A stretch of DNA of 64,000 nucleotides, from contig JBIIRM010000003.1 of NCBI GenBank assembly GCA_044341565.1, positions 45,187 through 109,186 of the forward strand, given 5' to 3'. The notes under the pieces are model-generated. The model was not told the DNA's origin and did not search any database. It saw only the letters and a program-made list of their open reading frames with translations. Shown one piece after another: positions 1,189 through 62,334 of the stretch; position 1 is the stretch's first letter, and each line of letters starts with the position of its first letter. Source of the DNA: Minisyncoccia bacterium. GTDB taxonomy: Bacteria > Patescibacteriota > Minisyncoccia > SW-4-49-11. The position numbers and the translations under genes are program-made.

Positions 1189-3066
1189 ATAAAAATTAAA
1201 TCTCTCCAAATCTCAAATATACTTAGCTTCCCCCATGTCGAAAATATAGAAGTTGCTCCAAAAATCATCTTTGATAAAGATTTAAGTATTCTTATTGGTC
1301 AAAATGGTTCAGGAAAATCAACAGTCCTAGAAATAATAAACTTTATTTTTAGGAGAGTGATTTTTATTCCATATAACAGAAATACAGATTTATATACTAA
1401 AAGAAACACAATTAATTCTAATGAAAAGAAGCAAATATTATCACAAATACATAATATTTCATACTATCATGGTTTTCGTCTTGATAGGAATTACGATTTT
1501 GAAAATAATGAACAAAAAATACGAGTTGTTGTTGAGTTGGATAATATTGATTTAGATAATATTGCACATCTTAAAAATAATACAGACCAGTTATCACCAA
1601 TAATTGATATGTATTCGGCTGAGCAAATGTTTGGAGATGGGGTAATACAAGAGGAGTATCAATTAGATATTATCTTAAATAGTACAAATAAAACCTATAT
1701 CGTCGAAACTAATCAAGATATTGGATATACTTATTTAAGAGCATATAATCTATATAAAGAGATGATAGAAATATATAATGAAGAGAACTTTGATGCTCCA
1801 ATCAAAAATTTAGCTGAATCATTTTCATTGATTGGGGGATACAGGAATTATAATTCTTATGCTACTCATGTTTCTCTTGGTGCTGGAGAAACCTCAATAA
1901 AACAAATTCAGGAGATTAGGGTTTCTGAGTCTTCAAGGAGTGCAAATTCTGTAGAAAATACTGAGCCTTCCATTTTTAGTTTAGTTCGATTGAAAATGGC
2001 TGGTCAATGTTTTGACTTAATAGGTACTAATGCAAATCAGCAAGAATGTGAAGCTACTGCAAATAATATGGATTTTATAAGAAGTATCAATGATAAACTC
2101 AAAATTATTAATCTTAGAGTAGAAATTAAGCTTCTTGATTATTCACGCTGGAATTTTACTTTTTCTTTTGTTGATATCAAAAGAGGTAGAGATATTTCTG
2201 ATATAAATGTTTTGAGTGCTGGGCAAAAGGCAATTATTCATTTAATATTTGAGGCGTATGGACGAGGTTATTTACAAGGTGGGTTAGTGATTATCGATGA
2301 GCCTGAAATACATTTACATTATCAGTTTCAAAGTGAATATATTCGTGTGATAGAGAAATTAAACAGCGAACAGGATTGTCAGTACATCTTAGTTACGCAT
2401 TCTGAATCTCTCATAAATTCGGAGACTATAGATAATGTTGTACGCTTATCTCTGGATGAAAAGGGTTATACTAAAGTTAATCAACCAGTCATTAAAACTG
2501 ATCAAAAATGGCTTGTTAAGATTTTAGATAATATGCGTTCTACTCACGCATTTTTTGGAAGTAAGATTTTATTGGTAGAAGGAGAAACAGATCGTTATTT
2601 TTTCCGTGAGGTTCTAGGAGAGATAGAGGAGAAGTTAGGGAAAGGATTAATTCAAGATATAACTATATTATCTGTTGATAGTAAAAATAATTTTACAGAG
2701 TGGAAAAACTTATTCAGTACCTTTGGGCTAAAAGCTTTTTGTATTGGTGATTTAGATTATGCATTTATTTTTTATCCTAAGGAGAAACAAAGTAAGATTA
2801 AAAACTTAAAACAAGTTACCGAGTTTTTAAATGATCATCCAGACGTTATTTCAAAGATAGAAGGAGAGTATCAAAATGGAACATATATTTTAAAAGAGGG
2901 GGATTTAGAGATGTATTTAAATATTAAAAAAGATCTTAGTAACGTAATATATTTTTGTCAGAACAATCTCAAAACATATCTTGCAGATAGTAAAAACTCC
3001 AAAGTACAAGAATTGAAAAGAATTATGGCTTGTATTACGGGTGAGAATGAAGCTGATTTGTGGTGA
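1189..3066 (+). CDS. OLD-family ATP-dependent endonuclease (ABC-type ATPase head + C-terminal Toprim)
   Basis: Walker A GQNGSGKST lies at 1303-1329, upstream of the GTG at 1357 called by the ORF track. The ABC signature is LSAGQK, Walker B is LVIIDEPEIHLH and the H-loop is ILVTHSE. The Toprim motifs are LLVEGETD and CIGDLD. The in-frame reading has no ATG/GTG/TTG between the TAA at 1177-1179 and the Walker A, so the placed start (ATA 1189, which would give MKIKSLQISNILSF) is provisional. Confidence 0.75.
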   Translation: MKIKSLQISNILSFPHVENIEVAPKIIFDKDLSILIGQNGSGKSTVLEIINFIFRRVIFIPYNRNTDLYTKRNTINSNEKKQILSQIHNISYYHGFRLDRNYDFENNEQKIRVVVELDNIDLDNIAHLKNNTDQLSPIIDMYSAEQMFGDGVIQEEYQLDIILNSTNKTYIVETNQDIGYTYLRAYNLYKEMIEIYNEENFDAPIKNLAESFSLIGGYRNYNSYATHVSLGAGETSIKQIQEIRVSESSRSANSVENTEPSIFSLVRLKMAGQCFDLIGTNANQQECEATANNMDFIRSINDKLKIINLRVEIKLLDYSRWNFTFSFVDIKRGRDISDINVLSAGQKAIIHLIFEAYGRGYLQGGLVIIDEPEIHLHYQFQSEYIRVIEKLNSEQDCQYILVTHSESLINSETIDNVVRLSLDEKGYTKVNQPVIKTDQKWLVKILDNMRSTHAFFGSKILLVEGETDRYFFREVLGEIEEKLGKGLIQDITILSVDSKNNFTEWKNLFSTFGLKAFCIGDLDYAFIFYPKEKQSKIKNLKQVTEFLNDHPDVISKIEGEYQNGTYILKEGDLEMYLNIKKDLSNVIYFCQNNLKTYLADSKNSKVQELKRIMACITGENEADLW

Positions 3067-3118
3067 AGTATGGAATCGCCTTATATAGATGCTATAATAA
3101 ATCTATAAACAATAATCT

Positions 3119-3358
3119 ATGAAACTCTTTCGTTATCGTAAACCATCTCTCAAAACATTACTTGGAGTGACAAAGCTGAAGCGTAGGATAAAGAAGGCTA
3201 CGGGAATTTCTGCTATTCAATCTCTCAGTCCTTCTCGAGTTAAGCAAAAAATAAAATACAATATAGGGTATAATAAACCTATTTTTAAACATACCAGAGA
3301 ACTGAGCAAGGGCAAAGTCCCAAGTTTATTCGGCTGGTTTTCAAAATTATTTAAGTAA
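3119..3358 (+). CDS. small basic hypothetical protein (79 aa, Lys/Arg-rich)
   Basis: The ORF lies immediately downstream of the OLD gene on the same strand. No recognisable domain. Confidence 0.3.
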   Translation: MKLFRYRKPSLKTLLGVTKLKRRIKKATGISAIQSLSPSRVKQKIKYNIGYNKPIFKHTRELSKGKVPSLFGWFSKLFK

Positions 3359-3387
3359 TAAAAAAAATCCCCCGGCTAGGCGGGGGT
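3358..3387 (-). terminator. GC hairpin (CCCCCG...CGGGGG) with an A-run on the plus strand, i.e. a T-run on the minus strand
   Basis: Seen in sequence at 3369-3386 with A10 at 3358-3367. Orientation fits a minus-strand transcript arriving from the right (ORF 3457..3741). Confidence 0.45.
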
Positions 3388-3456
3388 GGGGGAGATGTTG
3401 ATTGACTTCAGATTTCCCCTGTGAGTTGCAGCACGAGAATGCGCTGCTTCTCCCGC

Positions 3457-3741
3457 TCAGGGGGGGAGAGGATGTTTTTGTCCTTCATGAACAAAGAATC
3501 CGTCCTCTATTCCTTCTTGGAGCAAGCTGTCTGCCAACTTCTGCTGGCTGAATGTGAGTCGACTGAGGTTGGGCTTCTGGTTTGCCAAACGGCGGAGAGC
3601 ATCTTGCATCCCCGAAGAATAAACACCCATGATGCAGTTGCAATTTGCTAAGACAACATAGCATATTTTATCAATTTTGTCAATAGGTAATAACTGAAAA
3701 TTCCTTATATCAAAAAGCAAAATCCAATTAAATTCACTCAA
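3457..3741 (-). CDS. hypothetical protein (94 aa) in a GC-richer segment
   Basis: The ORF ends just upstream of the minus-oriented terminator hairpin. No domain recognised, and the competing plus-strand ORF 3421..3651 overlaps it. Confidence 0.25.
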   Translation of the reverse strand: MSEFNWILLFDIRNFQLLPIDKIDKICYVVLANCNCIMGVYSSGMQDALRRLANQKPNLSRLTFSQQKLADSLLQEGIEDGFFVHEGQKHPLPP

Positions 3742-3782
3742 AGCCTGGTTAAGCGGCTGACCGCAAGACTATTTTCGAGCAA

Positions 3783-4184
3783 ATGCTCCTCGCTACAGGG
3801 AAGTATACCGTTCTAAAAGGGGGGTATGAGCATACTATGCCCTTGGTTGCTCAGATTTCTCGGGAGTTAGAAGAGGATAAGGTTCTGGAAGGAGTAAGAA
3901 AATCTCCTGATTTTATCCTTATTAATAAAAAGCATCCACATGTTGATTTTATTGAAGTAAAATATCATAAAGATAGAAACTCGACTTATATTCTGGAAGA
4001 TACTCAGGAAATTCACGCATTCTGGCCGCATGCAAAATTATTTGTTGCAACACGAGAAGGATTCTTCCTGGATACCTGTTCTGACATTATTAAATATCAC
4101 AATATTCAGCCCTTCTCAGACCATATTGTGTCATCAGAGCTACAAGAAGATTATCTAAAGATTTTGAAGAAGTTTTTGAGGTAA
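3783..4184 (+). CDS. hypothetical protein with PD-(D/E)xK-like motif (candidate nuclease fold)
   Basis: SPDFILINKKHPHVDFIEVKY gives PD ... D-x-E-V-K spacing typical of the PD-(D/E)xK restriction-endonuclease-like core. The assignment rests on the motif only. Confidence 0.35.
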   Translation: MLLATGKYTVLKGGYEHTMPLVAQISRELEEDKVLEGVRKSPDFILINKKHPHVDFIEVKYHKDRNSTYILEDTQEIHAFWPHAKLFVATREGFFLDTCSDIIKYHNIQPFSDHIVSSELQEDYLKILKKFLR

Positions 4185-5203: not shown

Positions 5204-5647
5204 ATGGGATATATGAATGCTGAGATGGCTATACAAATTAATCAATGGATAGATAGATTTCATAATCCTAGTTATTGGATTATATTTTGGGTTATTGCCT
5301 TGTATATCCTATTAGAATATACGATTTTACCCACAAAGAAAATCCTATTGAATACGGTATATAGTCGTATAGTCTTATATACTAAATTTGGTCTTCTCCT
5401 CTTTACCTTTTCTATTGCCTTATCTCAAAGTGTATTGGGTGGTTGTGCTATTCAGTTAATTCAGAATTATCTGGCGGTCAATTATCTAGACAGAGAATAT
5501 TGGTATCCTTTTGGTTTGGTATTCCGTGAGCAATTAGCTCCTCAATTTTGGATTTGGCTCAGATTATTATATGGGGTGCTTACTATAGGATATGGATTCT
5601 GGATTTATCGGTATTATCGTTTTGTGAAAGGAAAGGTGGGGGAGTAG
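5204..5647 (+). CDS. small membrane protein (3-4 TM)
   Basis: Hydrophobic ORF, Trp/Tyr-rich, immediately after the previous membrane protein. Confidence 0.45.
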   Translation: MGYMNAEMAIQINQWIDRFHNPSYWIIFWVIALYILLEYTILPTKKILLNTVYSRIVLYTKFGLLLFTFSIALSQSVLGGCAIQLIQNYLAVNYLDREYWYPFGLVFREQLAPQFWIWLRLLYGVLTIGYGFWIYRYYRFVKGKVGE

Positions 5648-5653
5648 AAAACT

Positions 5654-5697
5654 GTCCACACCCACCACTGACGTGGTCCCCCCTCGCCAGCGAGGGG
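5654..5697 (+). repeat. GC-rich double-hairpin dispersed repeat, copy 1 (GTCCACACCCACCACT..GTGGTCCCCCCTCGCCAGCGAGGGG)
   Basis: A near-identical copy lies at 12888-12930 and an inverted copy at 62290-62334. Each copy contains two hairpins (ACCAC..GTGGT and CCCTCGC..GCGAGGG). Confidence 0.8.
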
Positions 5698-5791
5698 CAA
5701 AGATGGGTGTCGTATATATTAAACTACTGACAATCTTTGACAAAAGATACTGTTTTTGATACTATTAGCTAGACCTTAAAAGGTGTACTTT

Positions 5792-6391
5792 ATGATTCGT
5801 CCTCTTGCAGCCCTTGGTGCTGCAATGCTTCTCACTACTGCTTGTGCCTCGGCTCCAACCAAGATATCTGCAGCGCCTGTTCAAACGCCTTCTTTTCTGA
5901 GGGCTGTGGGGACGGGTGAGAGCAATCGCTTCGGCAATCCTCTTATTCGAGTGGAGATGTACGCTGAGGGTCAGCTTCAAGGCTCTGTATTGGCTGTTTC
6001 TGGAAGAGCTCACACTCAAAACAGGAATAGGCATATTGCAGGGACAGAGGCTCCTTTGCCAGATGGTCTCTATACGGTGGATAATCAGGTTTATCCTTCC
6101 ACCAATCCACAGACTGCTGGTCAATTCCTCCCGATTTGGCCACAATTCCCAACTGGGCGTACTGAGCTTGGATTCCATCTGGATCCTAGCTACAATATTG
6201 ACCCAAAAGAGGATGGTACTCAAGGCTGTATTGGTTTCACCACTGCAGCAGATAGAGCCAAGCTATTCGGTTGGATTTCTAAGCATAAACCACGCTATCT
6301 CGAGGTGAATCTCTCATGGAAAATTCCTCCCGCCAAGTCGCTATCGGCCTTGGGGCTTTTGCCCTCTCGCTGGCATCAGTACCGGCATTGA
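5792..6391 (+). CDS. secreted protein, divergent YkuD-like (L,D-transpeptidase-fold) candidate
   Basis: ATG at 5792 with SD AAAAGG upstream, signal peptide MIRPLAALGAAMLLTTACASAP. Motif FHLD-x13-TQGCIG parallels the YkuD H-x(14-17)-[ST]HGC[IV] spacing with His replaced by Gln. GC is ~53% against the AT-rich backbone. Confidence 0.4.
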   Translation: MIRPLAALGAAMLLTTACASAPTKISAAPVQTPSFLRAVGTGESNRFGNPLIRVEMYAEGQLQGSVLAVSGRAHTQNRNRHIAGTEAPLPDGLYTVDNQVYPSTNPQTAGQFLPIWPQFPTGRTELGFHLDPSYNIDPKEDGTQGCIGFTTAADRAKLFGWISKHKPRYLEVNLSWKIPPAKSLSALGLLPSRWHQYRH

Positions 6392-6633
6392 GTCAAGTTG
6401 GTCCAGGTTATGTTCCGGTGATTCGGGCTTATGTCTGCGTCTGGGATGCATCTACCACACTCAATCTCCGCGCCGGCCCTAGCCGAGCTACCAGAGCAAT
6501 TGGGAGTCTCTGGCATGGTACTCCTGTTCAAATCATCAATCGCTTTGTGGCGAGCGATGGAATGTACTGGAATTTCGTCCGGGTCAATGGTGGCTCTGGT
6601 TATGTGCGTGATGATTATGTCTGTATCGGCTGA
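6316..6633 (+). CDS. secreted bacterial SH3 (SH3b)-domain protein
   Basis: Signal peptide MENSSRQVAIGLGAFALSLASVPALSQ, SD GAGGTGA 9 nt upstream. LNLRAGPSRATRAIGSLWHGTPVQIIN..DGMYWNFVRVNGGSGYVRDDYV matches the SH3_3 pattern. The ORF overlaps the previous one by 76 nt in another frame. Confidence 0.6.
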   Translation: MENSSRQVAIGLGAFALSLASVPALSQVGPGYVPVIRAYVCVWDASTTLNLRAGPSRATRAIGSLWHGTPVQIINRFVASDGMYWNFVRVNGGSGYVRDDYVCIG

Positions 6634-6663
6634 GGATTCTCCTTTTGCTACCGATTACAATAT

Positions 6664-6695
6664 CTCCCTGCCTTGCGTAGGGAGATTTTTATTTT
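6664..6695 (+). terminator. intrinsic terminator (CTCCCTGCCTTGCGTAGGGAG + TTTTTATTTT)
   Basis: Perfect 7-bp stem followed by a T-run, 30 nt after the stop of the SH3b gene. Confidence 0.7.
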
Positions 6696-6713
6696 GTAAG
6701 AAAAACTCCCCCC

Positions 6714-7031
6714 TCAAAGAGGGGGGAGAGAGAAAGCTTGGGGTTGAGATTTGTTGCAGGAGACTTGTCCTCCATCAAGGAGTCCAAGTACTAGACCTGT
6801 AGCTTTTGTATCGGGGTATTTCTTCAAATACCAAGAGGGAATTTTATTTCCCTCAAAAACCGCTGTGACCTCTACAGTTCCCCCTGTGGGGGTGTTGTAT
6901 TGGCAGTATCTTTGTTGCTCCCACTCAACGCGTGAGGAGCGAGTACCCACCCATGCATTGGGTGTGGCTGTGGCGGGGGAAGAAAAGGCTACAATGAGCA
7001 AAAGAGCCTTGAAAATGTGAGAAATGGACAT
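6714..7031 (-). CDS. small secreted hypothetical protein (105 aa)
   Basis: N-terminal signal-like MSISHIFKALLLIVAFSSPATA. The stop lies inside the minus-oriented hairpin 6706-6728 (CTCCCCCCTC..GAGGGGGGAG), which carries an A-run on plus = T-run on minus. Confidence 0.35.
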   Translation of the reverse strand: MSISHIFKALLLIVAFSSPATATPNAWVGTRSSRVEWEQQRYCQYNTPTGGTVEVTAVFEGNKIPSWYLKKYPDTKATGLVLGLLDGGQVSCNKSQPQAFSLPPL

Positions 7032-7100
7032 AATGTCAAAAATTGACGGTTCTGCTGGAATATAGCATATTTTAGCTATTTTGTAAAGGGGTTATAACAT

Positions 7101-7290
7101 AAAAGAAAAAGCCCCCCTCGTCGTAAATGGGATTTACTCCTGGGAAACCTCTCGGTGTTCCAACCTTCCTCCACGGGAAAACTCCCGTTTCCCCGACCCC
7201 TTTCCCAGACTATCTTGAGGTGGAATTTTTATACCGTTTAGAAATAACTGAGAATTGATAAAAAAAACCACCTCAGGATAGAGGTGGATA
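7101..7290 (+). repeat. ~160-190 bp intergenic repeat, copy 1 (second copy at 8752-8915)
   Basis: AAAGCCC(C/G)CCTCGTCGTAAATGGGATTTACTCCTGGGAAACCT(C/T)TCGGTGT(T/C)CCAACC ... CTTGAGGTG.A.TTTTTATAC.G.TTAGAAATAACT.AGAATTGATAA.AAAAAAC is shared by both copies. Copy 1 carries a ~30 nt insertion (TTCCTCCACGGGAAAACTCCCGTTTCCCCGA). Both copies sit in the 5' upstream region of minus-strand genes, in the same relative orientation. Confidence 0.75.
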
Positions 7291-7305
7291 TTGTGGGGAG
7301 GTGAG

Positions 7306-34605: not shown

Positions 34606-37029
34606 ATGATAATTGTACTCTATGTACTGCTGGTGCTATGGGTTATTGCTATAACATTTATTATAGCAACGGTTATTATACATCCATTTTGGGAAAAACG
34701 TCGTATTAATCGGGGACTTGCAATGACACAATATCAAATTATTGTACCTCGCAATATCCCTAATCCAGAAGCTAATATCAAAGATTTAATTAGTGTGATG
34801 GAACAGGTATATGCGGGGTTCTCTTATCTCAAATTAGAGAAATTAGTCAATCGTCTTAGATATGGGAGTCCTTATATTTCTCTTGAAATTGTAAGCCCTA
34901 CCGAGCGAGATGAAATTAATTTTTATATTGGAGTTCCAAAAGGGTATGAATCTATTTTTGAAAAACAAATTCATGGAGTATATCCAGAAGCTGAGCTGAA
35001 GCATATTACTGATTATAATGTATTAATCCCTGAAGGAGAAATTCGGGCCGGATACTTACAGCTTAAAAAACCCTATATTCTCCCTATTAGAACCTATAAA
35101 GAATTAGAAACTAATCCTTTGAATGTGATTACCTCGGCTCTGTCTAAAATTCAGGAAGATGAAAGTGCAGTGGTACAGATTTTAATACAAAGAGTATCGG
35201 ATGATTGGAGTAGTAGTGGTAAGAAGGTAGTGAAGAAAATGCAAAAAGGAGAAAGCTTCAAAAATGCATATAATGAAGTTTTTGGGGGGATTGATAAGCA
35301 ATTTTTGAAAACTTTAGGTTCTGCTACAAAGTCTAAATCAACGGAAGTCTCTGAGCCAAAAATGTTAAGTCCTCAAGAGTCTATTATGATGGAGAAAATT
35401 AGTCAAAAAACAGGTAAAATTGCCTATGCGACTAATATTAGATTATTAACTATATCTCGAGATAGCCAAAGAGCAGATGTATTATTTGATCAATTAGAGG
35501 GTGCTTTTTCTCAATTTGCCAATGGAGATCTGAATCAATTTAAAGTAATCAAATATCCTATAAAGAATATTAAACAATTTATTTATACCTTTATATTCCG
35601 ATTATTCTCAGTAAAAGAATCAATGTTATTAAATAGTGAGGAATTGACGAGTATATATCATATTCCTGCTGTGGGAGTGGAGACTCCAAAAGTAACTTGG
35701 ATTACTTCTAAAACCTCACATCCTCCAGTTGATTTGCCAAAGGAAGGATTATTATTAGGGAAGAATATATATCGTGGTGAAGAAATTGAGGTAAGAATTG
35801 CAGAAGAGGATAGGAGACGTCATATGTATCTTATTGGACAAACAGGAACAGGTAAAAGTTCTTTGATGAAAAAAATGATACAAGAAGATTTGCAAGCAGG
35901 ACATGGTCTTGCTCTATTAGATCCTAATGGAGATTTTGCCGTGGAAGTATTGGGTATGATTCCAGAGCATCGTATGCAAGATGTGATTTATTTTAATCCT
36001 GCTGATACTAATTATCCTATGGGACTTAATATTCTGGAAGCCCGCACACATGAGGAAAAAGATTTCTTGATACAAGAAATGATTTCTATTTTTTATAAAT
36101 TGGTATCTGATCCAAGTATGATAGGGCCAATATTTGAGCATAATATGCGAATGGCAATGTCAGCTTTAATGTCAGATGTCAATAATCCAAGAACTCTAGT
36201 AGAAATACCTCTTATGTTTACTGATGAGGCATTTAGGAGACAAGTATTATTAACAGTTGACGATCCTGTCATACGGCATTTTTGGGAAAAAGAATTTCCT
36301 GCTACACAAAAAGGTTCACAAGCAGGGGATACACTTGGGTATCTATTAAGTAAATTGGGCCGATTTATTGAAAATGAAATGGTGCGTAATATTATTGGGC
36401 AATCTCGTTCAGCCTTTGATTTTCAAGATATTATGAATTCAGGTAAAATTTTGATTGGTAATCTTTCTAAAGGAGGGTTGGGGGAACAAAATAGTAATTT
36501 ATTAGGTATGTTGCTGGTATCCAAATTACAAATGGCAGCCTTTAAGCGAAATGAAATTCCAGAAGAACAGAGAAGAGATTTTTATTTGTATTTAGATGAG
36601 TTTCAAAACTTTACCACAGATAGTATATCTACCATTCTCTCTGAGGCTCGCAAATATCGATTATGTCTCATATTGGCCCATCAATATATAGGACAATTAT
36701 CTGAGGGGATAAAGAATGCAGTATTTGGGAATGTGGGTACTGTGGTAAGTTTCCGTATTGGATCCGAGGATGCTGAAATTATTGCTCAGCGTATGCAACC
36801 ATATTATAGTGCTGAGGATTTAGTGTCAATTGACAATCTAAAGTCAGTAATAACCTTGATGATACAGGGTAAGACCAGTAAAGCTTTTAATATGGATATT
36901 ATATTCGCTGATAAGACGAATGCATCTTTACAACAACGGGTAATATTAGAGTCTCGCAATAAATATGCCAAGCCGGCAGCTGAAATACGAGCGGATATAT
37001 CGAGTCGTACGCAAAGTATGTTCGAATAG
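34606..37029 (+). CDS. FtsK/HerA-superfamily P-loop ATPase, VirB4/TraC- or VirD4/TraG-like (type IV secretion-type)
   Basis: N-terminal TM helix. Walker A IGQTGTGKSS around residue 412 followed by LALLDPNGDF, and Walker B FYLYLDEFQNF. 807 aa. Confidence 0.6.
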   Translation: MIIVLYVLLVLWVIAITFIIATVIIHPFWEKRRINRGLAMTQYQIIVPRNIPNPEANIKDLISVMEQVYAGFSYLKLEKLVNRLRYGSPYISLEIVSPTERDEINFYIGVPKGYESIFEKQIHGVYPEAELKHITDYNVLIPEGEIRAGYLQLKKPYILPIRTYKELETNPLNVITSALSKIQEDESAVVQILIQRVSDDWSSSGKKVVKKMQKGESFKNAYNEVFGGIDKQFLKTLGSATKSKSTEVSEPKMLSPQESIMMEKISQKTGKIAYATNIRLLTISRDSQRADVLFDQLEGAFSQFANGDLNQFKVIKYPIKNIKQFIYTFIFRLFSVKESMLLNSEELTSIYHIPAVGVETPKVTWITSKTSHPPVDLPKEGLLLGKNIYRGEEIEVRIAEEDRRRHMYLIGQTGTGKSSLMKKMIQEDLQAGHGLALLDPNGDFAVEVLGMIPEHRMQDVIYFNPADTNYPMGLNILEARTHEEKDFLIQEMISIFYKLVSDPSMIGPIFEHNMRMAMSALMSDVNNPRTLVEIPLMFTDEAFRRQVLLTVDDPVIRHFWEKEFPATQKGSQAGDTLGYLLSKLGRFIENEMVRNIIGQSRSAFDFQDIMNSGKILIGNLSKGGLGEQNSNLLGMLLVSKLQMAAFKRNEIPEEQRRDFYLYLDEFQNFTTDSISTILSEARKYRLCLILAHQYIGQLSEGIKNAVFGNVGTVVSFRIGSEDAEIIAQRMQPYYSAEDLVSIDNLKSVITLMIQGKTSKAFNMDIIFADKTNASLQQRVILESRNKYAKPAAEIRADISSRTQSMFE

Positions 37030-40926: not shown

Positions 40927-41009
40927 GCTGGTGTGGTGGAATGGTAGACACGAAGGACTCAAAATCCTTTGGAGGCAACTCCGTAACGGTTCAAGTCCGT
41001 TCACCAGCA
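40927..41009 (+). tRNA. tRNA-Leu (anticodon CAA), class II with long variable arm
   Basis: Acceptor GCTGGTG/CACCAGC + discriminator A, anticodon stem AAGGA/TCCTT with loop CTCAAAA, variable hairpin GGAG-GCAA-CTCC, T-arm ACGG-TTCAAGT-CCGT. Confidence 0.85.
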
Positions 41010-41016
41010 CAATATT

Positions 41017-41198: not shown

Positions 41199-41218
41199 TC
41201 AAGTCCGTTCACCAGCAC
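41199..41218 (+). repeat. 20-nt exact direct repeat of the tRNA-Leu 3' end (TCAAGTCCGTTCACCAGCAC)
   Basis: Identical to 40991-41010 but without the upstream 5' half of the T-stem, so it is not a functional tRNA. Sits ~190 bp downstream of the tRNA. Confidence 0.8.
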
Positions 41219-41223
41219 TAAAT

Positions 41224-41253
41224 AAAAAACTCCCAATTCTTTGGGAGTTTTTT
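41224..41253. terminator. bidirectional terminator AAAAAACTCCCAATTCTTTGGGAGTTTTTT
   Basis: It serves the 3' end of the minus-strand pilin-like gene. Confidence 0.7.
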
Positions 41254-41260
41254 ATTTACT

Positions 41261-43654
41261 CTATTGTGCTCGGCTCCCATCAGTATTAAGACGAGCTATA
41301 TATTGCGCCGCTACTCCTTGATATTGAGTAAAACTTCCTCCTACTACAAATTTACCATCATTTTGTGTTATTATACTATACACCATCTGATCAAATCCCG
41401 TGCCTATACTAAAACTATAGTCCCTACTCCCATTACTATTTAGTCGTATAATATAATTAGCTCCTACTCCTTGATATGTACCAAAATCTCCCCCTATTAT
41501 TAATTTCCCATCACTCTGCTGTATAATACCTCTTACTGGAACAATCAAAAGATTATTAAAGCCTGTACCTATAGCAAAAGTATTATCTGGAGACCCATCA
41601 CTGTTTAGTCGTATAATATAGTTAGCTCCTGCTCCCTGATAAGTAGTAAAAGTTCCACCCAATACTAATTTTCCATCGCTTTGCTGTATAACCGCGTATG
41701 GTACATTATTAAATCCCGTACCTATATTAAAAGTATTATCTTGAGATCCATTACTATTTAACCGTGTTATTCTATTTGTAGACACACCCTGATACGTACT
41801 AAATGACCCTCCAATAATAATTTTCCCATCACTTTGTTGGTAAACCTTGTTTACCGTACCATTAAATCCTGTACCTATATTAAAACTCGTATCTATACTC
41901 CCATCAGCATTTAACCTTATGATTCCATTTGCTGATACTCCTTGATAAGTGGTAAAAAAGCCACCTATAACTATTTTCCCATCACTTTGTTGTATAATGC
42001 TCATTACGCTACTATTAAATCCTGTACCTATATTAAAAGTATTGTCTCTACTTCCATCACTATTTAGTCGTATAATATAATTGGCTGCCACTCCTTGATA
42101 AGTAGTGAAATCTCCCCCTAGTACTATTTTACCATCACTTTGTTGTATAATACTCGCAGGAGGATTATTAAACCCTACCCCTATATTAAAGCTACTGTCT
42201 CTTGTTCCATCATTATTTAAGCGTGTTATTTTATTAACTGACACCCCTTGATAAGTGGTAAAAAAGCCACCTATAACTAATTTCCCATCACTTTGTTGTA
42301 TTATACTCTGAGTAGAACTATTAAACCCAGTAAAACCTAGAGGTGGGGTTTGAATTCCTCTGTTGACACAACGGAAACCAATACGGCTATTAAAATCAGA
42401 GGGAATATACGACATATTGAGCGAAAAAACTCCTGTAAAGCTATGATCAGACAACTGGCTACCACGAATGAAACCGTAAATGGTATTATTTCCAGGAGTC
42501 CCATCACTCCATACTGCTCCCACATTCTGGCTAGTATCCCAACTTGTATTACTTGCTCTATAATCATCATAATTAAGGATTCCATTAGTGGTTAACAGAG
42601 TAAATGGTCTCCAACCACCAAATCCTGGACTTGCTGTTATTGTTGGTTGATCAGCTCCAGTTATAGTGTTATTAGTCCATTCCCATACATTTCCACTTAA
42701 GTCCCATATTACTGATCCATTGGATAAAGTATGTGTTCTTTTTTGTATACTAGGAGATATGTCCCCTGTCCCGCTATAGGGAGCTGTATCAATTCCTGCT
42801 ACTAATCCTAAGGCTGGAGTATTATCACTATGTCCTCTCCATAATCCTCCCGACCCTACTGTTCCACCTGTCCAATTACTTGGCTGAGCCTCTATATTAC
42901 GGGCTATTGTCATCCATTCTTTATTCGTAATAAGACTTCCTCCAGCATTAATACAATATGTAGCTGCCGTTATCTGGCTTATCTTTACTATTGGATAACC
43001 ACTTGCTACACTAGCTACAGCCCTACCATTAGCTGATGTAGTTGCGGTTATAGTATTGTCTATGGTATTTGCCCCTTCGTCGGGTGTAGTTAGTCCTACT
43101 GTAGGAGAGGCTATTGCTACTGCCTTAGCCTCATATTTCATCACACAAAAGTCCTCAGTATTATAAAGACTATTTCCTGGGACTTTAATATATCCTGTTG
43201 GACACACAATATTGGTATAGATAGATTGTCCACGAGTAAAAATGGTATTATCAACTGAATTGACTCCACTAATGGTGAAGCGCCCTATATCATCGGTAAC
43301 AATAGAGAAACCACTTAAGACGGGATCAGTCCCATAAAAGGGTATGCTTTGAATATATGTAGGGACAAGAAAAGTAATATCAATACAACCTGCTCCAGGT
43401 GTCTTACAGATAGGAGTGGTGGAATTAGCAGTAAGGGCAGATATTTGTGGGTGATGAGATCCTGTCTTGAGAGCATATTGTTCTAATGCCTGATAAATAG
43501 TCAGGGCATCGGCTTTGCGTTCATTATCATTTGCTTCCGAAATAATTCTGCTGGGGTTTAGAGCATATAATACTGTGGCAAATAGAATAGCAAGAAGAGC
43601 AATGACGAGAAGTATCTCGAGTAGGGTAAAACCTTTTTTTGTAGTGTGTTTCAT
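41261..43654 (-). CDS. type IV pilin-like protein with FGE-sulfatase-like (C-type-lectin-fold) domain and 8 C-terminal delta-60/DUF5122-type beta-propeller repeats
   Basis: Prepilin-type N-terminus KKGFTLLEILLVIALLAIL. The mid region has NVWEWT ... GFRCV (FGE-sulfatase family signature). The C-terminus has ~48-aa tandem repeats FNIGTGFN..IIQQSDGKIVIGGFFTTYQGVS.N.IIRLN.DGS.D, which are also tandem at DNA level (~41300-42330). Confidence 0.85.
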   Translation of the reverse strand: MKHTTKKGFTLLEILLVIALLAILFATVLYALNPSRIISEANDNERKADALTIYQALEQYALKTGSHHPQISALTANSTTPICKTPGAGCIDITFLVPTYIQSIPFYGTDPVLSGFSIVTDDIGRFTISGVNSVDNTIFTRGQSIYTNIVCPTGYIKVPGNSLYNTEDFCVMKYEAKAVAIASPTVGLTTPDEGANTIDNTITATTSANGRAVASVASGYPIVKISQITAATYCINAGGSLITNKEWMTIARNIEAQPSNWTGGTVGSGGLWRGHSDNTPALGLVAGIDTAPYSGTGDISPSIQKRTHTLSNGSVIWDLSGNVWEWTNNTITGADQPTITASPGFGGWRPFTLLTTNGILNYDDYRASNTSWDTSQNVGAVWSDGTPGNNTIYGFIRGSQLSDHSFTGVFSLNMSYIPSDFNSRIGFRCVNRGIQTPPLGFTGFNSSTQSIIQQSDGKLVIGGFFTTYQGVSVNKITRLNNDGTRDSSFNIGVGFNNPPASIIQQSDGKIVLGGDFTTYQGVAANYIIRLNSDGSRDNTFNIGTGFNSSVMSIIQQSDGKIVIGGFFTTYQGVSANGIIRLNADGSIDTSFNIGTGFNGTVNKVYQQSDGKIIIGGSFSTYQGVSTNRITRLNSNGSQDNTFNIGTGFNNVPYAVIQQSDGKLVLGGTFTTYQGAGANYIIRLNSDGSPDNTFAIGTGFNNLLIVPVRGIIQQSDGKLIIGGDFGTYQGVGANYIIRLNSNGSRDYSFSIGTGFDQMVYSIITQNDGKFVVGGSFTQYQGVAAQYIARLNTDGSRAQ

Positions 43655-56139: not shown

Positions 56140-57387
56140 ATGAAAAAAATGCAAAAAAAAGGATTTACATTATTAGAGGTATTACTGGTTATCGCTTTAA
56201 TAGGGATATTATTGACTATTATATTGGTAGTCCTCAATCCAAGGGAGCGTTTTGCTGTAGCTCGTAATGATGTTAGGAAATCTGATATACAAAAATTAGA
56301 AGGAGCTCTTACCCAATATCGCCTACAAGAGGGTTCATATCCAGCTGGACTTACTTCAACCTTACAAGAAATTTGTGACCCAGATATTAGTAATCCTTCC
56401 GTAAATTGTGGTAGCTATATTAACTTATCATCTCTTGTCCCAACTTATATTCAATCAATACCACAAGATCCCCAAGACACTGATTCAACAGGAGGTTCTG
56501 GATATCAAGTTGCGGTAGATGTGACACGAAATGTAGTAGCACTAAAAGCAATACAGGCAGAATCCTCAGCTACAATATCTATTAATAACCCCTTATCATC
56601 GGCTCTATCAAGTACAGCGGTGAATACACCCCTTGCAGCAAGTAACCCTCCCATAACTAGTCAAACTCCACCTTTAGTACCTAATACAGGAGATGTATCG
56701 CTACTGCTCCACGCGGATGGCAGTTTTGCAGACAGTAGTCCTAATAATTTTGTTCCGATGAGTACCGGAGGGAGTGGCGGGGGTGTGCAAATTAGCACTA
56801 CTCAGAGCAAGTTTGGTGGTTCAAGCCTATTCTTCCCAGATGTGGACATAAACAATGCCCCCTATCCCGCGTTGTCATATTGGACACCTGAGTCTGGTGG
56901 ATATAATTATTTCCCTGAGTTTAGCCTAGGAAATACTTATACAATTGAAGCATGGGTCTACGCAATTACACCCAGGGGAGGAATAGTTGAGAGGCTTGCT
57001 GGAGCTTTTTCACAGGAATATGGGTACTCTATGACGTTTGAAGGAACACGAATAAAATGTTACTTTTACGGAACCTTCGACGGTTCAGGATTTCAACAGT
57101 ATATCTTAGCTCCTTCTGCGTTTCCCACCTCAACCTGGGTTCATGTAGCAATGGTTCGTAGTGGAACAAACGGAGCCTTATACATTAACGGTGAGTCAGT
57201 TGGTACTATAAATAATCTTAACACTCCGCAAGGAAGTGTCAAGCCGGTTCTTATAGGTTCAAAAAGTGTTGGAAGCGGAGGAAATTATAACACTATCTTC
57301 TTCAACGGTTACATAGATGATCTACGTATCACTAAAGGAGTTGCCATATACACCTCTAACTTCACCCCACCTACTTCAGCTTTTTGA
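56140..57387 (+). CDS. type IV pilin-like protein with C-terminal LamG-like (concanavalin A-type lectin/glucanase) domain
   Basis: Prepilin N-terminus KKGFTLLEVLLVIALIGIL. C-terminal LLLHADGSF..KFGGSSLFF....FTIEAWVY....WVHVAMV..G.LYINGESVG....FNGYIDDLRI is the LamG_3 pattern. Confidence 0.8.
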   Translation: MKKMQKKGFTLLEVLLVIALIGILLTIILVVLNPRERFAVARNDVRKSDIQKLEGALTQYRLQEGSYPAGLTSTLQEICDPDISNPSVNCGSYINLSSLVPTYIQSIPQDPQDTDSTGGSGYQVAVDVTRNVVALKAIQAESSATISINNPLSSALSSTAVNTPLAASNPPITSQTPPLVPNTGDVSLLLHADGSFADSSPNNFVPMSTGGSGGGVQISTTQSKFGGSSLFFPDVDINNAPYPALSYWTPESGGYNYFPEFSLGNTYTIEAWVYAITPRGGIVERLAGAFSQEYGYSMTFEGTRIKCYFYGTFDGSGFQQYILAPSAFPTSTWVHVAMVRSGTNGALYINGESVGTINNLNTPQGSVKPVLIGSKSVGSGGNYNTIFFNGYIDDLRITKGVAIYTSNFTPPTSAF

Positions 57388-57450: not shown

Positions 57451-57633
57451 TTGATCAGAGGTGATGGGTCTCGAGATAATACCTTTAATATCGGGGCAGG
57501 ATTTATGAGTACTGCTCAGACTATTATACAACAAAATGATGGGAACTTCGTTATAGGTAGCTATTTTGATACTTATCAAGGAGTAGCAGCTTATATAGCT
57601 CGTCTTAATACTGATGGAAGTAGAGCTCAGTAA
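57451..57633 (+). pseudogene. orphan 3' fragment of a delta-60 beta-propeller repeat gene (paralogous to the 3' end of 41261..43654)
   Basis: It encodes a single repeat ending ...YQGVAAYIARLNTDGSRAQ*, almost identical at protein and DNA level to the C-terminus ...YQGVAAQYIARLNTDGSRAQ* of the 797-aa pilin-like gene. No prepilin N-terminus. Confidence 0.55.
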
Positions 57634-62264: not shown

Positions 62265-62289
62265 TCTTCTTTTAGGTTTTTTTACATAT

Positions 62290-62334
62290 TGTCCCTCGCT
62301 GGCGAGGGGGGACCACAAAGTGGTGGGTGTGGAC
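62290..62334 (-). repeat. GC-rich double-hairpin dispersed repeat, copy 3 (inverted orientation)
   Basis: The reverse complement GTCCACACCCACCACTTTGTGGTCCCCCCTCGCCAGCGAGGGACA matches copies at 5654 and 12888. Confidence 0.8.

Follow-up and report, generated by a model that had tools for sequence, protein, structure and literature searches.

Organization of the Locus

We analyzed a 64,000-nucleotide (nt) stretch of contig JBIIRM010000003.1 from a Minisyncoccia bacterium (assembly GCA_044341565.1, positions 45,187–109,186), hereafter called the window, in which positions 5792–6633 encode two overlapping genes for export-type, peptidoglycan-related proteins: a divergent YkuD-like enzyme and a small SH3b protein. 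The features of this two-gene cassette are as follows:

5737–5765, + strand: promoter-like site, TTGACA-17-TACTAT with TG (10/12 matches)
5792–6391, + strand: putative YkuD-like, lipoprotein-type peptidoglycan enzyme, divergent, 199 amino acids (aa) (from Pfam, an AlphaFold2 (AF2) model, Foldseek and invariant residues)
6314–6316 and 6317–6388, + strand: codon 175, the end of the YkuD-like core, and codons 176–199, a read-through tail (from the ends of homologues and the predicted local distance difference test (pLDDT))
6316–6633, + strand: SH3b (SH3_3) small secreted-type protein, 105 aa (from Pfam SH3_3 and conserved adjacency)
6662–6696, + strand: terminator-like hairpin and T-run closing the two-gene unit (from a reading of the signals)

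The YkuD-like gene starts at the ATG at 5792, behind a Shine–Dalgarno sequence, AAGGTG, at 5780–5785, inside which the GTG at 5783 falls, and the 100-nt promoter stretch is AT-rich, with a G+C content (GC) of 0.31. The SH3b gene has a Shine–Dalgarno sequence of its own, GAGGTG at 6302–6307, which lies within the conserved LEV codons of the upstream gene, so the two genes are probably translationally coupled. Since a promoter, Shine–Dalgarno sequences and a terminator are all present, the acquired genes sit behind native-style signals, and the layout from the promoter through both genes to the terminator reads as a single transcription unit.

A Divergent YkuD-Fold Protein and Its SH3b Partner

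The first protein scored 19.5 bits against Pfam YkuD (PF03734), under the gathering threshold of 23.4 bits, whereas two of its homologues score above that threshold (25.8 bits in contig L005 and 30.0 bits in genome L030), and many database relatives have a precomputed PF03734 match. An AF2 model built from a 45-sequence alignment had a pLDDT of 84 overall, above 90 in the core and ~50 in the tail. When this model was compared with the PDB by Foldseek, the significant matches were YkuD-fold enzymes alone, namely LdtMt2 (6iyw, 8a1l, 4qr7) and Pgp2 (6xj6), with a probability of 1.0, a TMq of ~0.38–0.40 and an identity of 12–14%; LdtA was a weaker match (E 0.2). A sequence search against PDB chains gave no match even at E = 10. 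Among viral models, the best matches were a phage tape-measure domain and a Nodularia phage endolysin (TMq 0.66, root-mean-square deviation 2.1 Å, 24% identity), with a marine phage “lysin” scoring lower (E 0.011).

Residues H129, D131 and C146 are invariant (H129 and C146 across the 45 aligned sequences), and hhalign sets TQGC146 on the SHGC of Escherichia coli LdtB in a weak alignment (E 0.12). The active-site motif in the window is H129-x13-T-Q-G-C146-I, with 13 residues between the His and the Thr. An earlier note on this DNA, made from the letters alone, had written the motif as FHLD-x13-TQGCIG; its spacing is correct if counted from His129, but only 11 residues follow FHLD. The canonical YkuD motif, as quoted in the literature, is HXX14-17[S/T]HGCh, and the family departs from it in having Q/A/S/E/D in place of the motif His and in following C-I with G/A, not R/N. 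Judged by sequence and model, the protein has the fold and the apparent catalytic dyad of YkuD enzymes, falls short of the Pfam threshold and the canonical motif, and is best placed in a divergent subfamily, apart from the canonical L,D-transpeptidases.

By inspection by eye, the N-terminus of the YkuD-like protein (MIRPLAALGAAMLLTTAC) resembles a lipoprotein leader. The lipobox position reads L-T-T-A-C18, in which the −3 position is non-canonical compared with [LVI][ASTVI][GAS]C; the usual forms in homologues are L-L/S-S-C-A or L-G-A-C, and most of them keep the Cys.

The second protein matched SH3_3 (PF08239) at 28.6 bits, above the gathering threshold of 27, and its counterparts at other loci scored 29.5–49.9 bits. 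Its N-terminus (MENSSRQVAIGLGAFALSLASVPALS, followed by Q) is Sec-leader-like, again by eye. The mature N-terminus, QVGPGYVP, and two Cys are conserved among relatives, and QVGPGYVP together with a C-terminal RDDY[VI]C motif is common to the SH3b proteins of the window, of L030 and of a viral contig, L097. The earlier calls of a YkuD-like fold, an SH3b domain and, in a third gene described below, an M23 peptidase domain therefore all hold; the signal peptides proposed for the three proteins are borne out insofar as all three N-termini look export-like, with the reservation that the lipobox of the YkuD-like protein is atypical.

The YkuD-like and SH3b genes form a conserved two-gene cassette. 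In a scan of one genome per GTDB species, in which 80 loci were inspected out of 113 matches, an SH3b open reading frame (ORF) with its own leader lay 0–125 nt downstream of the YkuD-like gene at 41 of the 80, a count bounded by the sensitivity of tblastn. The pair is also adjacent in three phage-type metagenome contigs (L005, L093 and L094), which carry HNH, DNA ligase, PhoH, ThyX, DNA polymerase A, a tail-fibre domain and KilA-N/ANT, and in two IMG/VR viral contigs, L096 and L097 (in the latter at 2962–3803, with a 1-nt stop/start overlap). Furthermore, a second Minisyncoccia metagenome-assembled genome (MAG), L030, holds the pair at 219–1078 with a 4-nt stop/start overlap; there it adjoins RecR, DnaB and ArgRS, and its GC of 34% equals that of its flanks. 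The SH3b leaders in the phages are much shorter (~10–15 residues), and export of the phage SH3b proteins is questionable.

Origin of the 76-nt Overlap

As had been noted before, the YkuD-like gene (5792–6391) and the SH3b gene (6316–6633) overlap by 76 nt in different frames. Could the pair be a single YkuD + SH3b gene that was broken by a frameshift or is read by programmed frameshifting? The overlap in different frames would fit such a gene, and fusions of a catalytic domain with SH3b are common in cell-wall hydrolases. The relatives, however, point elsewhere. Homologues outside the window's clade all end in ..Y-L-x-V-x-I/L-(Q)-stop, and an extra 18–25 C-terminal residues occur only in the window, L008, L007 and P0048, the protein length among these tailed relatives varying between 193, 199 and 200 aa. 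The variable length of the tail and its low model confidence also speak against a fusion.

The junctions themselves account for the overlap. In L030, the junction reads AAC ATC AAA TGA, with the SH3b ATG overlapping the stop (ATGA), and in the window it reads AAT CTC TCA TGG, with the SH3b ATG at the same place. By this alignment, one A-to-G change at 6319 (TGA to TGG, 6317–6319) removed the stop of the YkuD-like gene, as a result of which the first gene reads 24 codons into the signal-peptide DNA of its partner. The ancestral ATGA stop/start overlap would thereby have become ATGG, leaving the 76-nt overlap as a by-product. A loss of the stop by a change of TGA to TCA at 6314–6316 was also considered and dropped, because the junction alignment puts it at the TGG at 6317–6319.

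Neither at the 80 genome loci nor in the phage-type contigs did we see a fused YkuD–SH3b ORF. A stop lies between the genes in every relative examined, including L024, the sole locus at which both are in the same frame; the apparently long fused ORFs in L024, L027, L038 and L041 proved on translation to contain a stop, and the extra length of the one in L056 is N-terminal. In every relative examined, the SH3b protein is separate, with its own start and leader, and in the window it has its own Shine–Dalgarno sequence, ATG and leader, so that a fusion protein would contain an internal signal peptide. The sequence also agrees in all assemblies. We therefore abandon the earlier suggestion of a frameshifted fusion, to which we would give almost no weight, in favor of the loss of a stop codon.

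Distribution and Source of the Cassette

A protein search returned 47 relatives of the YkuD-like protein, and all of the named ones were cyanobacterial (Calothrix, Crocosphaera, Nostocaceae). Likewise, 76 of the 80 GTDB loci are in cyanobacteria; the remaining four comprise one in the window's own clade (L008), one in the other Minisyncoccia MAG (L030) and two labelled “uncultured bacterium”, whose sequences fall beside those of Microcystis/Microseira and Prochloraceae. The matches in cultured phages are to cyanophages only, in which the domain forms the C-terminus of lysozyme-type endolysins.

The YkuD-like protein is 47–59% identical to the phage-type copies (47–55% for phage-type and IMG/VR contigs that carry the pair), 47% to that of L030 and 38–50% to those in cyanobacterial chromosomes; for the SH3b protein, the values are 39–47% to the phage-type copies and L030 versus 27–42% to cyanobacterial chromosomes. 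Measured by identity, both genes thus find their nearest relatives beyond the clade in the phage-type copies and in L030. In a neighbor-joining (NJ) tree, the two lineages of the candidate phyla radiation (CPR) fell together, beside a clade of 13 members, among them the phage-contig sequences L005, P0020 and P0022; we do not claim the phage clade as the sister group of the CPR sequences, because the bootstrap values (27–30%) are too low. Searches of PHROGs and NCBIfam with the cassette and the small ORFs of the surrounding GC-rich stretch gave no informative match.

These comparisons support the horizontal acquisition of the cassette from a cyanobacterium/phage gene pool, the pool to which the search for nearest relatives leads rather than to any one donor. 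We infer that a freshwater Patescibacteria lineage of the Minisyncoccia/Parcubacteria type took up the module from this pool. One earlier exchange between Minisyncoccota and cyanobacteria, of schizorhodopsin genes, has been reported (10.1101/2025.10.15.682728); its authors state that no symbiotic link between the two groups has been reported and remark that symbiosis would be a natural route of exchange. The same pair of phyla is trading genes in both cases; the schizorhodopsin exchange involves another gene family and Antarctic lineages, whereas the cargo in the present case is a wall-enzyme cassette with phage-borne nearest relatives.

Base Composition and Integrity of the Assembly

The segment 5792–6633 has a GC of 0.510, compared with a mean of 0.358 (sd 0.040) across all 842-nt segments of the 64-kb stretch (z = 3.7), and is the top one among them; only 0.03% reach that value. 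The earlier note had described three GC-rich genes, the third being the following:

12168–12776, − strand: M23/LytM-type metallopeptidase, 202 aa, secreted-type (from Pfam and invariant residues)

At the third codon position, GC (GC3) was 0.42 for the YkuD-like gene, 0.47 for the SH3b gene and 0.53 for the M23 gene, against 0.19–0.30 for backbone genes, and GC1 and GC2 are elevated in the three genes too. A segment of 51% GC above a backbone of ~35%, with the rise visible at all codon positions, is thus confirmed. On the other hand, the GC-rich stretch spans ~5650–10550 at a GC of 0.44, which is more than the three genes, and is a mosaic with the genome's own GC-rich repeats interspersed; further GC-rich patches are present elsewhere in the window. 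In cyanobacteria and phages, the difference in GC between the gene and its flanks averages +0.013, and in the window it is +0.16.

Might this contrast be no more than an assembly chimera, or the amino-acid composition of native secreted proteins? The other GC-rich patches in the window would be in keeping with that, as would the M23 gene, whose close homologues are confined to its own clade and have a similar GC where the DNA was read. However, the junction between a low-GC gene (5204–5647) and the YkuD-like gene is identical in assemblies L001, L002 and L003; the contig and the junction recur in JGI 3300059473, the Lake Mendota 20-year co-assembly (PMC11374980); and the junction is also found in the related MAG L008, at 87% nucleotide identity. 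The presence of the junction in these five independent assemblies rules out a chimera. The rise of GC3 along with GC1 and GC2 and the split of loci, 76 cyanobacterial versus 2 CPR, argue against native genes, and the L030 copy, of the same protein family and in another CPR lineage, sits at 34% GC, so amino-acid composition does not force a high GC. An artefact or a native origin of the cassette is thus hardly credible.

Among the backbone proteins, CrtI, IleRS and ValRS share 90% clusters with MAG proteins that bear the labels Candidatus Parcubacteria or Minisyncoccia. L008, which is the closest genome record and has an IleRS that is 98% identical, is labelled Candidatus Saccharibacteria; the organism is therefore a member of the Patescibacteria/CPR, with a finer placement that is only tentative.

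History and Selection within the Clade

The cassette shows a presence/absence polymorphism. A close relative, L088 (IleRS 93% identical, backbone 88% nucleotide identity), lacks ~1.07 kb matching 5648–6713, and its neighbor-gene stop lies ~40 nt from the 3′ end of its homologue of orf105, the minus-strand ORF that follows the cassette. L088 also lacks the HAD gene of the GC-rich stretch and retains orf105, DUF1653 and M23. The HAD gene has its nearest named relatives in Kaiserbacteria, Nomurabacteria and Patescibacteria. With a CPR-type HAD gene, and with the cassette and HAD missing where the other genes are kept, the idea of one island acquired as a block does not survive.

In L007, by contrast with L088, the cassette is present in the same order with orf105 and DUF1653 (YkuD 79% identical; synonymous divergence, dS, 0.58), so it is at least as old as the sampled clade. 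The ratio of non-synonymous to synonymous divergence (dN/dS) is 0.20–0.26 for the YkuD-like core and 0.05 for the mature, non-overlapping part of the SH3b gene; these low values indicate that both genes are kept by purifying selection, which would have acted since before the sampled clade members diverged. The earlier proposal of a recent horizontal acquisition accordingly needs to be divided: the foreign origin of the pair stands, and “recent” does not, as dS of the cassette within the clade is ~0.5–0.6. Between the window and L008, dS is 0.09 for the cassette and 0.42 for the neighboring gene b147, a difference that could suggest a recent spread of the cassette between lineages; we dropped this idea because the IleRS of the two is 98% identical, which makes b147 the outlier. 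The cassette lies between a convergent pair of genes and borders on a hypervariable region rich in defence genes.

Taken together, we read the locus as a horizontally acquired and selected two-gene peptidoglycan module in one transcription unit, not a fusion, with a probability of roughly 0.6. Several points weigh against this view. The enzyme activity of the YkuD-like family is assigned from fold and residues, the window protein lies under the Pfam YkuD cut-off and has no canonical [S/T]HGC His, and its lipobox, T-T-A-C, is atypical. The NJ bootstrap is just 27–30% both for the CPR grouping and for the grouping of CPR with the phage clade. When PhoH, a structural protein and a Kyano_Gp96-domain protein were used to look for the hosts of the phage-type contigs, they gave mixed hosts, and DNA searches returned nothing. 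The L030 pair is at its native 34% GC, so the history in CPR may predate a single transfer; a transfer from CPR to cyanobacteria at the deepest node is conceivable, although the 76:2 distribution argues against it. Finally, the absence of the cassette from L088 may be a loss and not the ancestral state, as L007 is at least as divergent.

Proposed Function and Comparison with Known Systems

In the proposed mechanism, Cys146, with His129, would attack the bond between meso-diaminopimelate (mDAP) and D-alanine (mDAP3–D-Ala4), or a 3–3 cross-link, of the stem peptides. The acyl-enzyme could then be resolved by water, as in an L,D-carboxy/endopeptidase, or by a neighboring stem, as in an L,D-transpeptidase, with the separately exported SH3b protein holding the enzyme on the wall. 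We lean slightly towards hydrolysis because the best structural matches among phage proteins are endolysin, tape-measure and lysin domains; transpeptidation seems to us somewhat less likely.

The YkuD-fold L,D-transpeptidases (Bacillus subtilis YkuD, Mycobacterium tuberculosis LdtMt2, E. coli LdtB) share with the window protein the fold and the His and Cys, and its export-type, lipoprotein-like N-terminus recalls that of several Ldts. They differ in that the canonical motif is not kept in the window protein, the TM-score is ~0.38–0.40, there is no sequence-level PDB match, and the window family has an obligate-looking SH3b partner gene. Among the L,D-carboxypeptidases (Campylobacter jejuni Pgp2, Helicobacter pylori Csd6), Pgp2 is as good a structural match as LdtMt2, and Pgp2, Csd6 and the type VI secretion system (T6SS) effector Tae5 show that the YkuD fold can hydrolyse mDAP3–D-Ala4 rather than cross-link; the identity of these proteins to the window protein is, however, 12–14%.

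The closest likeness is to the C-terminal domain of cyanophage endolysins (Nodularia phages vB_NspS-kac65/68 and vB_NpeS-2AV2; cyanophage S-2L gp53), which is the best structural match, has 27–30% sequence identity and carries a similarly sub-threshold YkuD signature. The phages fuse this domain behind a PF00959 lysozyme in proteins of ~380–417 aa that have no signal peptide, whereas in the window it stands alone in a lipoprotein-type protein and the SH3b partner is encoded separately.

Tae5/Tlde1 resembles the pair in being a small protein with a shortened His–Cys spacing encoded in a bicistron. Could the YkuD-like protein then be a Tae5/Tlde1-like toxin and the small downstream protein its immunity protein? 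The bicistron of a small YkuD-related enzyme followed by a small exported-type protein, and a His–Cys spacing below the canonical one as in the Tae5 family, would be compatible with an effector–immunity pair. However, the window pair has neither a DUF2778 (no match at E ≤ 1) nor an NTF2 domain and no T6SS context, with no secretion-system genes adjacent; the downstream protein has a clear SH3_3 fold, whereas the Tae5 immunity protein is a DUF2195 protein; the enzyme has a lipoprotein-type signal; and phages carry the pair. We consider a toxin with its immunity protein highly improbable.

A related thought is that the pair serves in phage exclusion or defence, as a “moron” that alters the wall against superinfection and is kept beside a defence island. 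Its closest relatives do lie in phage-type contigs amid accessory genes, and the cassette adjoins an SLFN-type helicase and an OLD-family nuclease, with type I restriction at that place in L088. This also seems improbable to us, if a shade less so: there is no PHROGs match (PADLOC was not searched), many cyanobacterial chromosomes carry the pair and the island holds no further phage genes. A comparison of the other island genes with the phage-type contigs likewise found none common to both beyond the YkuD–SH3b pair.

Could an epibiont instead export the cassette proteins, perhaps with M23, in order to open or remodel the wall peptidoglycan of a cyanobacterial host where it attaches? Given a cyanobacterial or phage ancestry, the enzyme would come ready adapted to such a wall. 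Outside cyanobacteria and their phages the family hardly occurs, its closest structural matches come from wall-breaching contexts (endolysin, tape-measure, lysin), the source metagenome is that of eutrophic Lake Mendota (PMC11374980), schizorhodopsins were exchanged between Minisyncoccota and cyanobacteria (10.1101/2025.10.15.682728), and the window encodes pilin-like adhesins and a type IV secretion system (T4SS) coupling protein. On the other hand, the schizorhodopsin preprint (10.1101/2025.10.15.682728) states that no symbiotic link is reported, and environmental DNA uptake would give the same ancestry without physical association. With a lipoprotein-type signal, the enzyme would stay anchored in the membrane of the bacterium itself, the close relative L088 lives without the cassette, and cyanobacteria carry the pair in ordinary chromosomal contexts, suggesting housekeeping remodelling of the wall. 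A role as a weapon against a host is therefore unlikely, and the selected two-gene peptidoglycan module remains our preferred reading.

The M23 Peptidase and the Neighboring Elements

The M23 protein matched Peptidase_M23 (PF01551) at 58.6 bits. Residues H79, D83, H132, H164 and H166 are invariant in 13 sequences (clade orthologues), so that what is expected of an active-type enzyme, HxxxD and HxH as zinc ligands and a catalytic His, appears to be in place, and the N-terminus (MKIQKAIPAIIGTALAICPMMVRA, followed by N) is Sec-leader-like by eye. It has in common with LytM/lysostaphin-type M23 enzymes PF01551, HxxxD, HxH, the third catalytic His and a putative signal peptide, and differs in being a single-domain protein without LysM, SH3b or a coiled-coil region, in an N-terminal region of ~75 residues that is clade-specific, and in its setting within a carotenoid cluster.

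The gene lies between CrtI and UbiA, behind a promoter-like site at 12857–12829 (12/12 matches). It is syntenic in L088, with 67% aa identity, a dN/dS of 0.20, a dS of 1.26 and a GC of ~51% in the L088 gene; the flanking carotenoid genes are 93–96% identical in aa to those of L088. Outside the clade, word-indexed and full HMMER searches found no relative above 45% local identity, and a donor could not be named, as these searches gave clade orthologues and then generic M23 domains at ≤45% identity, two of the next-best matches having long N-terminal hydrophobic regions. The earlier note is thus right about an intact LytM/M23 endopeptidase and overstates its horizontal origin, since the nearest homologues are of the same lineage and the L088 gene has a similar GC. 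From its sequence, M23 is a separate, older, fast-evolving and intact endopeptidase gene for which no donor can be named. The GC-rich, exported-looking genes orf105 and M23 both evolve far faster than the backbone, with dN/dS <1.

Two further features border the cassette:

5645–5701, no strand: GC-rich intergenic repeat/hairpin of family D6 (copy at 12878–12934, inverted copy at 62281–62334)
6714–7031, − strand: orf105, GC-rich ORF of 105 aa with a leader-like N-terminus, convergent with the cassette (promoter-like site at 7087–7059)

The repeat comes directly after the backbone gene 5204–5647 and forms the left edge of the segment absent from L088. On the other side, the minus-strand gene has a convergent terminator at 6728–6706. 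The orf105 homologue in L088 is at 10505–10852 on the minus strand (47% aa identity, dN/dS 0.43), and searches of Pfam, NCBIfam and PHROGs gave no family match; being present in the cassette-less L088, orf105 is a neighbor and not part of the transferred pair.

A block of ~46 nt recurs at 3655–3700, 7059–7104, 9131–9176 and 12829–12874; on the minus strand it reads TTGACAAAA..TATGCTATA(AT), a near-consensus promoter, and its copies precede several minus-strand genes, including orf105 and M23. Other GC-rich repeat pairs are 7094–7267/8744–8884 and 8009–8053/12101–12145. GC-rich intergenic repeats are scattered in this AT-rich genome, and several flank GC-rich genes, some being terminator-like.

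Upstream of the cassette is a run of defence genes, with an SLFN-group-3 helicase (72–1067) and an OLD-like AAA_15/TOPRIM nuclease (1357–3066), followed further upstream in the source contig by RhuM/Fic, DUF2726 and MazG-like genes. At the same position, L088 has a type I restriction system and NucS, which marks a variable hotspot adjoining the cassette.

Other Features of the Window

The M23 gene is inserted in a carotenoid-type cluster (10614–14587), between a CrtI-like desaturase (10614–12128) and a UbiA prenyltransferase (12950–13789) that is followed by a Caroten_synth/CruF-like gene (13823–14587); the layout resembles that of C50/bacterioruberin-type clusters. At the end of this cluster, 14500–15060 is 100% identical to L088 over ~560 nt, with flanks that are 72–94% identical. 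This tract takes in the final ~90 nt of the Caroten_synth gene together with all of a GC-rich ORF at 14630–15031 (GC3 0.64), for which no Pfam, NCBIfam or PHROG match was found, and could reflect recent recombination or an unrecognised conserved element. Close by, on the plus strand, two adjacent Rfam tRNA matches at 15198–15261 and 15268–15368 (53 and 45 bits) were not called by ARAGORN, and an overlapping YrlA (Y RNA-like) match scored 33.5 bits, below the gathering score of 69. The matches at 15198–15368 may represent unusual tRNAs or a tRNA-like RNA.

Pilin-like proteins with an N-terminal methylation motif and large adhesin-type domains are encoded at 41264–43654 (− strand; seven DUF5122 beta-propeller repeats and FGE-sulfatase) and 56140–57384 (+ strand; Laminin_G_3). 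These loci, including 57461–57632, contain 153-nt tandem repeats and have ~130-nt inverted repeats in common, and the T4SS coupling protein is encoded at 34606–37026. The 3′ end of tRNA-Leu(CAA) (40927–41010), TCAAGTCCGTTCACCAGCAC, recurs 208 nt downstream at 41199–41229, like the attachment-site remnant of an integrated element.

Significance

The locus shows how the loss of a single stop codon can yield a long gene overlap that mimics a frameshift. It also defines a two-gene module, a divergent YkuD-fold enzyme and a stand-alone SH3b protein, that is conserved across many cyanobacteria and several phages.

For most Patescibacteria the host is unknown, and among the scarce clues that sequence offers are genes taken from a host or from its phages. 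The cassette connects a CPR lineage of fresh water with the gene pool of cyanobacteria and cyanophages and adds to the exchange of rhodopsins between the same phyla. It is conceivable, and in our view rather improbable, that the cassette is the trace of a physical association of this Lake Mendota Patescibacteria lineage with bloom-forming cyanobacteria. In that case, an enzyme pair shaped for cyanobacterial peptidoglycan would have been taken from a host or its phage, and the epibiont would use it, perhaps along with the fast-evolving M23 peptidase, to breach or remodel the wall of the host where the two cells touch. If this were true, it would be the first gene-based prediction of a cyanobacterial host for a Minisyncoccia lineage and would give a widespread, uncharacterised YkuD-like/SH3b module its first function.

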